A DNA stretch of 41,846 nt from a virus (lineage: Duplodnaviria; Heunggongvirae; Uroviricota; Caudoviricetes), in IMG/VR virus record IMGVR_UViG_2778261638_000003, positions 1 to 41,846 of that record, one strand, 5' to 3'. Position 1 is the first letter of the stretch. Each line of letters opens with the position of its first letter. Shown one piece after another: positions 24,001 through 27,000 of this stretch. The position numbers were made by a program.

Positions 24001-27000
24001 CTTGTCATTGTCATTCCTTTTGCGGAGCCGTCAGCCAAGGCTCTTATTCATTGTTCACACAGTGTCCGATCACTGGAGGGCTGAGGTTGTATTTTAACAA
24101 TGGATAAAGCGCATAAAAACCAGGATATTCAACCAGTAAGCGACAAAATGAGTATTGTCCGTTGCATTACACCAGCCCTTCCGTGAGGGGCTGCGATAAT
24201 GTCAAAGCTCGCCATCGGCACCCGCCGCGCACCCAGCGCACTGGCCGATAGCGGGCTTTTTTATTCACAAAGCGAGTCTGTATGAGCGAGAAATTGAAGA
24301 TCGTCTATCGCCCGTTACAAAAACTGTCTCCATATGCGCACAACGCCAGGACCCACAGTCCTGAGCAGGTGGCTCAACTGGTAGAAAGCATTAAGCAATT
24401 TGGCTGGACTAATCCAGTGCTGATTGACGAAAAGGGCGAAATTATTGCTGGTCACGGTCGCGTTATGGCGGCTGAAGTGCTCAAAATGGATTCCGTTCCG
24501 GTCATTGTTTTGTCTGGCCTGAAGGAGGATCAGAAAAAGGCTTATCGCCAGGCAGATAATCGTCTGCCGCTTAACGCTGGCTGGGATGAAGATCTGTTAC
24601 GGATGGAACTGTCAGAGCTAATCAATGCTGATTTTGATATCTCCCTGACAGGATTCAGCCAAACAGAAATTGACGAACTGTTGACGGAAGTTTTGCCGGG
24701 CACCGGAACTGAGGAGGAGCCGTACACGACGAAAATTGATACGCCTGTTTATGAGCCGTCAGGCGATAAACCGGATATCGGCGAACTGTACGACGATACG
24801 AAAACTCAGGAACTGGTCAGCCGGATACGTTCGGCGTCCCTTGATCCTGATATCGAAAAATTCCTCCTGTGTGCAGCAGAGCGTCACACGGTGTTTGATT
24901 TCAGCAGAATTGCGGACTATTACGCTCACGCCCCCGCTGAAATTCAGCACCTTTTTGAGGAGTCGGCGCTGGTGATCATTGATTATCAGCAGGCCATTGA
25001 AAATGGATTTGTCCGGATGACGCAACGCATGGTGGAGATCATGCACGGCGGGGAGGAGGAATATGCGTGATGATTTTTGCGCCTTTATTCTGACTCACGG
25101 GCGACCGGACAAAGTTCTGACTTACCGGACATTACGTCGAGCTGGCTATACCGGTAAAATTTTTATCGTCGTTGATGATGAAGATAAAACCCGGCATCAG
25201 TACACAGCTGAATTTGGTAAACAGGTGTTGGTGTTTTCTAAAGCCGATATCGCCAGTCGTTTTGACGAAGCCGATAATTTCGGTGACCGTCGCTCAATTT
25301 TTTACGCACGTAATGCCTGCTTCGACCTGGCAAAACAGGTCGGGTGTAAATACTTCATTCAGTTCGATGATGATTATCATGAGTTCCAGTTTCGGGTGGA
25401 TCACAACTATGACCAGGCCTATTTCCCGATAAGGAAACTGGACGCAATCCTTTCTGAAATGCTGGCGTATTACGAATCAATTCCTGCGCTTTCCATCGCT
25501 ATGTCGCAGGGCGGGGATTTTCTTGGTGACAATGGCGGCCATGCTTCATGGGTGAAACGCAAGGCAATGAACAGCTTTATCTGTTCGGTTGAGCGACCGT
25601 TCTCATTCATGGGGCGCATTAACGAGGATGTGAATACTTACACGAATCTCGGTCGCCGTGGTGAATTGTTTATGACGATTGGTGCTGTCCAGTTGGGACA
25701 GAAACAGACGCAGAAAAACAGCGGCGGAATGACCGAGCTGTATCTGGATACCGGAACCTACGTTAAAAGTTTTTACTCCGTCATGTATGCGCCCTCGTGC
25801 GTAAAAATCTCACTGATGGGGGCCAGCCATAAACGCATTCACCATCAGGTCACCTGGAACAACGCTGCAGTAAAAATCCTTAACGAAAAATACAGGAAGA
25901 AGACACCCTGCATACCAATGGGGGTGACAAATGATTCCGTATTCGAAAGTCGAGTCTCTGGCTGCGTGCCGGATGACCGCACAACAAATCGCTGATGTTC
26001 TGGATGTTGATCTGAACCGACTGAAAGAAAATCGGGAAGCAATGACAAATTTTTACGCATCCATCCGTAAGGGAAGAGCGAAAGGTGAAGCCGAGCTACG
26101 AGCCGCATTGTTTAAGCTTGCCAGAAAAGGGGATGCCTTTGCTCTGCGTGAGTTACTCAGGGTGGATAAAAATCAGGACTAACTGATGAACAGACCGGAC
26201 TGGGGGGCGTTGCAGCAGGAATATATTGCTGAATACACCCGTTCCGGTATATCTCCGGTTGCATGGTGTGAAGCAAGGGGACTGAATTACGCAACAGCCC
26301 GTCGTTACATCAAAAAACCTCCGAAAAATGCGCAGACAGAAGTGCGCAAAACTGCGCAAAAAAGTGCGCGAAAAAAAACTGCGCAGACTGCGCAAAAGCG
26401 GAACAGAAAATCTCAGAAAAAAAAGACGGTATCCGATGCCTTCCTGATTAAGAGTGGCGCGGAGGAGATTTCATTCTGTCCCGATGAATTCGGCATTTCT
26501 GACCAGCAGGCAAAATTCGCCATGCTGGTTGCCCAGGGTAAAAACCTTATCGATGCATACCGCCTGGCGGGTTACGAGGGGACGGGAAACGTAGCAAGTG
26601 CCGCAGCTTCCCGCCTGTTAAGAAATGTTAAGGTTTATCGGGCTATCTCATGGTTCCGCAATCAGTACCAGAAACGCTATACCGCAGACCTGGATTTACT
26701 AGTGAGTCAGTTGATGGCCATTGTTCAGGCCGACCCCAATCAGTTGGCGCAATTTCGCCGTGTTAACTGCCGTTATTGCTGGGGCGAGAATCACCTCTAC
26801 CAGTGGCGCGATATAGCAGAATTCGACAAGGCAGCGGCACAGGCCTCCAGAGATGGCAAACCTGAACCTGAATATGGTGGCCTCGGGTTTGTTGATAACG
26901 CCATACCCAATTCGGACTGCCCGAAGTGCTGCGGTGAGGGAACAGGGCAGCTTTATATGGCCGATACCACTCTGCTTGATGGGGATGTACGGCAATTATA

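Follow-up and report, generated by a model that had tools for sequence, protein, structure and literature searches.

The window analysed here, a stretch of 41,846 nucleotides (nt) covering positions 1 to 41,846 of IMG/VR virus record IMGVR_UViG_2778261638_000003, is a Rac-like lambdoid prophage of Escherichia coli. Within its small terminase subunit gene, terS, six copies of the hexamer TGCGCR lie between positions 26329 and 26394, and this array is probably the pac site of a headful packaging system, or the core of that site, or the sequence through which the small terminase subunit (TerS) recognises the DNA to be packaged. The reading is carried by the non-random clustering of the hexamers, by their conservation at the level of the DNA, by their covariation with one helix of TerS and by the homology between the N-terminus of TerS and that of PacA from phage P1. 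Judged from sequence comparisons, the array is best read as a P1-type pac or TerS-binding array that uses a different hexamer, forms one cluster and belongs to a protein with a Terminase_2 body.

A hexamer cluster inside the small terminase subunit gene

The terS gene occupies positions 26186 to 27280 of the plus strand and encodes a protein of 364 amino acids (aa). Its assignment is based on matches to the Pfam family Terminase_2 (PF03592; 30.6 bits against a cutoff of 26.1, aa 107–316) and to PHROG 51, ‘terminase small subunit’ (4.9e-71), and the same annotation is carried by 90%-identical phages and E. coli genomes. The original prediction on this DNA had placed six copies of TGCGCA or TGCGCG inside a terminase small subunit gene. 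The gene assignment holds, with the large subunit gene terL following next, and the positions were exact: TGCGCA starts at 26329, 26343, 26353, 26380 and 26389, and TGCGCG at 26365. The array, to which no strand is assigned, spans 66 base pairs (bp; nt 144–209 of the gene) and has the extended repeat unit AA(C/G)TGCGC(A/G)AAA. It is the single hexamer cluster of terS in the window, the next TGCGCA of the gene being located at nt 980. Runs of five to eight A are present in the array region (26312–26425). The start-to-start distances between hexamers are 14, 10, 12, 15 and 9 bp. With a mean of 12 bp, the helical-turn spacing proposed earlier stands as an approximation, but it is irregular here (9–15 bp) and relatives do not conserve it, with 7, 9, 12, 14, 21 and 26 bp all being common distances. 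Because the spacings of relatives vary from 7 to 26 bp, strict helical phasing does not seem to be needed.

Over the whole window, TGCGCR occurs 53 times against an expectation of 54, and because this count shows no overall enrichment, the signal lies in the clustering of the motif and not in its abundance. Six sites in 66 bp were reached in none of 1000 dinucleotide-preserving shuffles, whose maximum was three, and the Poisson expectation for six TGCGCR in such a stretch is 1.3e-8. Re-encoding the same peptide with the codon usage of the late genes of the phage (5000 trials) gave no copy of the hexamer in 61% of the trials and three copies at most.

Selection on the DNA rather than on the peptide

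The array lies in a region coding for a basic, low-complexity linker (26318–26470, plus strand, approximately aa 45–95) that is predicted to be disordered, with a predicted local distance difference test score (pLDDT) below 50 for aa 57–80 in the AlphaFold2 model. That a repetitive basic peptide is encoded here, as had been noticed before, was borne out: residues 44–80 read KPPKNAQTEVRKTAQKSARKKTAQTAQKRNRKSQKKK, with 15 K or R and a single E. Rather than having been selected for itself, this peptide is more plausibly a side effect of the DNA element. In the window, codon phase 3 (xxT GCG CAx) accounts for five hexamers and phase 2 (gTG CGC Aaa) for the sixth, so the motif is not bound to a single reading frame. 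Among the relatives described below, hexamers of the TGCGCA class are found 357 times in phase 3, 97 times in phase 2 and 15 times in phase 1, encoding x-A-Q in most copies and otherwise [VLM]-R-x or C-A. In the A-Q dipeptides of the linker, alanine is written GCG in 90% of the cases and is preceded by T in 92%, compared with a GCG share of 26% among the alanine codons elsewhere in these genes.

A natural allele provides further evidence. P0025, which comes from two samples of Logan, L338 and L339, has three +1 insertions within runs of A, so that its linker peptide reads NSEKCAERNAQNCAKKCAKKKLRRLRK instead of PPKNAQTEVRKTAQKSARKKTAQTAQK, and all six hexamers are intact. All six are also present in a relative of 77% identity (L340) despite its diverged spacers. 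In other alleles one or two copies are gone, and 666R9 keeps four, which fits an array that is redundant. The use of three reading frames, the forced codon choice and the frameshift allele with its 6/6 hexamers together indicate that it is the DNA, and not the peptide, that is conserved.

The hexamer follows the recognition helix

Directly before the linker, TerS carries an N-terminal domain of about 44 aa (26186–26317, plus strand; MNRPDWGALQQEYIAEYTRSGISPVAWCEARGLNYATARRYIKK) that is predicted to fold as a three-helix helix-turn-helix (HTH) and whose putative recognition helix is YATARRYIKK. The AlphaFold2 model, built on an alignment of 60 sequences, places helices at residues 6–20, 24–31 and 35–38 with pLDDT values of 78–89. 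The homologous region of PacA gives sub-threshold matches to HTH_23 and HTH_24, and the domain of the window has no Pfam match. On the strength of the model, the N-terminal 44 aa are a probable HTH domain. Across relatives, its consensus is MAKPDWGxLQxxFLxEHAxTGISPKDWCEAxGLNYxTARRYIKK.

In 160 distinct genes with this domain, the sequence of the helix and that of the repeated hexamer were paired without a single exception. An ARR[YH] helix was accompanied by TGCGCA (127/127), an AKR[YH] helix by TGCGAA (17/17) and the ARTR helix of Stx2a-converting Traversvirus phages by CGATCAT (16/16). The state with lysine and TGCGAA is found in two backgrounds, the enterobacterial one (MAKPDWG...) and that of Pasteurellaceae (MARINWK...), and genes in the GATC state have an N-terminal domain that is 70–74% identical to that of TGCGCA-type genes. 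On this evidence, specificity appears to have switched independently roughly two to three times.

In the Stx2a-converting phage LC645441 (L012, 2620–2700), as in L094–L132, the ARTRIK helix is followed by four or five CGATCAT and then by two TGCGCA. These CGATCAT repeats contain Dam sites, as does P1 pac, and the region is unannotated in LC645441. The CGATCAT array is, from its sequence and place, a candidate pac site of the Stx2a-converting phages.

A second combination of domain and repeats occurs on the same kind of body. In PP818812 (L005, 2810–2900) and in E. coli-type contigs (L343–L346), a Rac-type TerS body carries an unrelated N-terminal HTH that matches Pfam HTH_50 (2e-6), and at the same place in the gene there are two to three copies of TTTCCAC followed by three of GTGGAAAC in inverted orientation. 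This set of repeats is conserved between proteins that are only 56% identical. That another HTH on the same body brings other repeats with it speaks for a joint exchange of reader domain and site.

Distribution of the domain and the array

The same N-terminal domain is found on top of TerS bodies that differ in length and sequence. Small subunits bearing it were identified in phages of Klebsiella, Yersinia, Aeromonas, Pasteurella and Escherichia, with 550 relatives found in IMG/VR, and in the phages examined the domain was always joined to a TerS body adjoining TerL, with an array of hexamers starting immediately behind it each time. In 81 distinct terS genes with the domain, the first hexamer starts at nt 131–163 of the gene, and nt 121–420 hold 3–10 cognate hexamers, a density of 20.7 per kb against 0.5 per kb elsewhere in the gene. 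A sample of one genome per species, which took in many genera of Enterobacterales and some Vibrionales and Alteromonadales, contained 46 intact ARR[YH] genes with at least three TGCGCA, and two pseudogenised copies (L383 and L387) whose arrays have decayed. The test was also run in reverse, by scanning IMG/VR for DNA alone (three TGCGCA separated by gaps of 3–12 bp). The domain was encoded within 500 nt at 53 of the 80 loci sampled, with E values of at most 7e-21 in each case, and the remaining loci were regular coding tandem repeats (for example, of GDAQVY) or clusters in GC-rich phages.

Many genes of the Klebsiella type have a second cluster of three TGCGCA some 165–190 bp downstream (L003, 3282–3325; L004, 3270–3313). 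In Rac-SA53 (KU052037; L002, 2912–3940), terS is annotated as a deletion fusion, ‘gpOterS’, which is without the N-terminal domain and has two hexamers left; this state is consistent with a packaging-defective prophage.

Comparison with phage P1 and other packaging systems

The closest counterpart of the array is the pac site of phage P1. A profile of the TerS domain aligned with aa 3–40 of PacA over 38 columns with an hhalign probability of 94.3% (E = 1e-7), and a pairwise BLASTP comparison gave an E value of 0.003. Matches to PHROG families crossed in both directions, from the window N-terminus to phrog_1711, the PacA family (1.5e-5), and from PacA to phrog_370 (1.9e-4). By these comparisons, the TerS N-terminal domain is a remote homologue of the PacA N-terminus. 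P1 pac is a proven site that has been known since the 1980s (Sternberg & Coulby, 1987, and Skorupski et al., 1994, both summarised in PMC10028697), and synonymous disruption of its hexamers lowers packaging (PMC10028697). Its annotation in AF234172 comprises seven TGATCA/G hexamers in nt 194–233 and 324–352 of pacA, just past the homologous domain; these hexamers lie on both sides of an IHF site and of the cleavage positions that have been mapped. In both phages, therefore, hexamer repeats lie inside the small subunit gene, directly downstream of homologous N-terminal domains, and in more than one reading frame (codon phases 2, 3, 3, 3 and 3, 3, 2 in the two P1 groups). The two systems differ in the hexamer, TGCGCA/G in the window and TGATCA/G in P1, and in the proteins: the rest of the window TerS is of the Terminase_2 type and not PacA-like, and the window TerL has Terminase_6N and Terminase_6C domains, whereas the N-terminus of PacB gives only weak matches to AAA_30 and TerL_ATPase. 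The second cluster of three in Klebsiella-type relatives recalls the 4 + 3 layout of P1, which the window lacks.

Pac sites within terS are familiar from other phages (PMC9611059). The pacL–pacR sites of SPP1/SF6 and their protein G1P resemble the present case in the Terminase_2-type TerS, in the multiple contacts with A-rich, probably bendable DNA in or near terS, and in the avidity model of a ring of HTHs. Individual HTHs of SF6/SPP1 bind with little local sequence specificity (PMC4737164); the covariation of residue and base described above implies that here, unlike in SF6/SPP1, an extra N-terminal domain would make a base-specific readout. The array shares with the pac sites in P22 gene 3 and Sf6 gene 1 that it lies within terS itself, in a headful lambdoid phage. 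The P22 site is a single asymmetric sequence of 22 bp, for which TerS binding was unmeasurable in vitro (PMC9611059), in contrast to the redundant array of short repeats found here. The layout also resembles the R-sites of lambda cosB, which are repeated short sites read by the N-terminal winged HTH of the small subunit gpNu1, but that is a cos system, with sites outside the gene and dependence on IHF. In the literature covered, from which subscription journals were mostly absent, no account was found of TGCGCA or TGCGAA arrays in terminase genes, of a PacA-like domain on Terminase_2 proteins or of a covariation between helix and hexamer.

A model for packaging recognition

The suggestion that this part of terS might be a terminase-binding or pac site is strongly supported by the position of the array, by its covariation with the helix, by the independence of the motif from the reading frame and by the likeness to PacA. 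In the mechanism that we propose, TerS would carry the extra N-terminal HTH (aa 1–44) on a flexible basic linker. If TerS forms a ring, as is assumed from other Terminase_2 proteins, it would present several of these HTHs, and each copy would read one hexamer or half-site, with the A-rich spacers and the basic linker adding non-specific affinity. A redundant array of weak sites could in this way become a specific mark of high avidity on the concatemer, and the redundancy would tolerate both variable spacing and the loss of single copies. TerL, the presumed nuclease and motor, would then cut close to the mark, and unidirectional headful packaging would begin. Because the linker of the proposed reader is encoded by the very DNA that contains the site, domain and site would travel as one cassette. 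The physical binding, the avidity of the ring, the position of the cut and the direction of packaging are the inferred parts of this scheme.

Several observations weigh against the array being a pac site read by the N-terminal domain. Binding, cleavage and the start of packaging rest on inference for every member of the family, and the domain model gave no significant match in the PDB with Foldseek (best E value of 2.2), although the list consisted mostly of HTH domains. The Terminase_2 part of TerS contains a further DNA-binding region, of the canonical kind, and this could be the real reader of pac. Since the sequences are phylogenetically related, the counts from 160 genes overstate the number of independent events, and because PacA carries TARRY but binds TGATCA, the helix motif is not a universal code. 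Three intact marine genes, from Psychromonas (L403), Pseudoalteromonas (L406) and Colwellia (L409), have the domain with an ATARR[YH]IK helix and no adjacent array; they are exceptions to the association of domain and array. The remaining points concern P1. As GATC is absent from the TGCGCR hexamers, the array has no Dam control and no obvious methylation switch; its six hexamers form one cluster, whereas those of P1 are arranged 4 + 3 around the IHF and cut sites; and no match to the IHF consensus WATCAANNNNTTR with up to one mismatch was found in 25360–28765, whereas P1 has one.

Alternative explanations

A function of the array in gene regulation shares all of the binding evidence, the covariation of helix and hexamer included. 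TerS, or a short N-terminal product, would bind the array as an autoregulatory operator and control transcription or translation of the late operon, not packaging. The array lies early in the first packaging gene, and the SPP1 TerS is thought to have a regulatory role besides packaging (PMC4737164). Because many database open reading frames (ORFs) stop in A-runs just past the domain, a short product consisting of the HTH alone is conceivable. Nevertheless, 25800–26800 contains no promoter-like site, the homologous array of P1 is a proven pac (PMC10028697) and the domain always comes fused to a TerS body beside TerL, so that an operator is an unlikely explanation. It is somewhat less likely still that the array is the binding or modification target of another factor, be it the upstream ParB/Srx protein (YnaK), the glycosyltransferase resembling TET-associated glycosyltransferases (TAGT), the product of the 83-aa ORF or a host protein. 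The ParB/Srx and TAGT genes do lie immediately upstream and are conserved there in Rac-type relatives, but phages of Klebsiella, Yersinia, Aeromonas and Pasteurella have the same domain and array without ParB or TAGT genes upstream of terS, and the hexamer follows the helix of TerS and not the neighbouring genes. A link to ParB/Srx, TAGT or DNA modification was for this reason rejected as a general explanation.

The palindromic hexamers could also act in RNA, as a translational control hairpin in the mRNA or as terminator-like hairpins in an antisense transcript. The sense RNA of 26310–26420 folds at −31.4 kcal/mol (z = −4.1), the arrays of Klebsiella and Aeromonas have z values of −3.6 and −3.2, and on the minus strand of 26329–26395 pairs of hexamers with T-runs behind them score as three hairpins of the intrinsic-terminator type. 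However, the non-palindromic TGCGAA arrays of homologous genes are not folded beyond chance (z = −0.4, +0.5 and −0.3), from which it follows that folding results from the palindrome and is not itself conserved. The array region is matched by no Rfam family, and an RNA element would leave the covariation with the protein helix unexplained. We regard this explanation as remote; the minus-strand hairpins, as a by-product, could still block antisense transcription. Finally, the array might have no function as DNA, its repeats being a by-product of slippage in low-complexity sequence coding for a basic linker, given that the region is A-rich, of low complexity and prone to indels, and that most copies encode x-A-Q. 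This is barely credible. Two of the spacings, 14 and 10 bp, are not divisible by three, three frames are used, codon choice is fixed at about 90%, the P0025/L338 allele keeps the DNA and loses the peptide, re-encoding of the peptide never reproduces the array, and the tandem-repeat look-alikes returned by the pattern scan have regular periods, which the array does not. A simple coding tandem repeat was thus rejected on the frames, the codon choice and the frameshift allele.

The TerS body and the prophage surroundings

Beyond the linker, the Terminase_2 core of TerS (aa 107–316 by Pfam) is encoded by 26504–27133 of the plus strand and contains a CxxC...CxxC insert. Read from the translation, this consists of CRYC (26798–26809, aa 205–208) and CPKCC (26936–26950, aa 251–255), a pair that is suggestive of a zinc ribbon. 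The profile search with the 44-aa domain returned only short, truncated ORFs, which served as the alignment for structure prediction and do not constitute a census of the family. It yielded 186 database ORFs of 39–77 aa, P0121–P0240 among them, in which the domain is followed by out-of-frame linker peptides; these may be sequencing errors, decaying prophages or real slippage products.

The terS gene is followed by terL (27252–28562, plus strand), whose start overlaps the 3′ end of terS and whose product matches Pfam Terminase_6N (3.7e-33) and Terminase_6C, and then by a portal gene of Pfam DUF4055 (28565–29971). On the other side lie the ParB/Srx-like gene ynaK (24282–25070), directly before the TAGT/GREB1-like glycosyltransferase gene (25063–25995), and an 83-aa ORF (25931–26182) that ends 4 nt before terS. 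The pair formed by ynaK and the TAGT-like gene is conserved upstream of terS in Rac-type relatives. The TAGT-like protein bears the PHROG name ‘beta-glucosyl-HMC-alpha-glucosyltransferase’, and no TET gene was detected among the ORFs scanned, nor a methyltransferase gene among ten ORFs of the early and lysis regions. No Pfam family is matched by the 83-aa ORF, which corresponds to the central part of PHROG 309, ‘terminase small subunit’ (2.5e-22), and which may be left over from a TerS of another type or serve as an accessory to one.

Used as a query, the 4.3-kb terminase region (24282–28562) was 100% identical to E. coli WY517-2 (NZ_CP076259), and 766 of the 5426 complete E. coli genomes contained it at 90–95% identity and at least 80% coverage. 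Induced phages of E. coli and Salmonella have the region too, with a terminase small subunit annotated in their records. Between the lysis and packaging modules, the prophage has type II heat-labile enterotoxin (LT-II) genes, and it also encodes an ADP-ribosyltransferase resembling pertussis toxin S1; the loci are 21566–22345, 22302–22703 and 19046–19789. The A chain was identified by Enterotoxin_a of Pfam (2.9e-117), the B chain by LT-IIB (1.2e-41). The layout is similar to that of phage Rac-SA53. Two Rfam matches above the gathering score, the RalA antitoxin small RNA (197 bits) and the sok antitoxin RNA (105.7 bits), correspond to toxin–antitoxin RNAs of the prophage at 1557–1735 and 15732–15907.

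Implications for packaging specificity

How the small terminases of headful phages recognise their own DNA has been described as unclear and controversial (PMC9611059). Demonstrating specific binding in vitro has proved difficult or impossible for P22, Sf6 and SPP1/SF6 (PMC9611059; PMC4737164), and even for a phage as well studied as ES18 the pac site is unknown (PMC11260489). The family described here offers a case that can be read from sequence, with a discrete reader domain, a redundant array of short sites and natural specificity variants (TGCGCA, TGCGAA and GATCA) that lead to direct predictions for mutagenesis, so that a long-standing and vague problem of recognition is turned into specific, cheap experiments. 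A pac function of the array would locate the probable origin of packaging and of lateral transduction in a type of prophage that was found in over 700 complete E. coli genomes. The copy in the window carries LT-II enterotoxin genes, and an equivalent site is indicated in Stx2a-converting phages.

A wider reading, to which we give an even chance, is that the HTH and its own array in the linker DNA form a portable, self-contained cassette for packaging specificity, which has become joined to a number of unrelated TerS bodies in Enterobacterales, Aeromonas, Pasteurellaceae and Vibrionaceae and which appears to follow a simple rule that relates R or K in the helix to C or A at base 5 of the hexamer. 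If this is true, pac sites would be predictable from sequence for hundreds of prophages, those of LT-II and Stx2a toxin phages included, and the specificity of packaging and transduction could be re-engineered by the exchange of one residue together with the hexamer.

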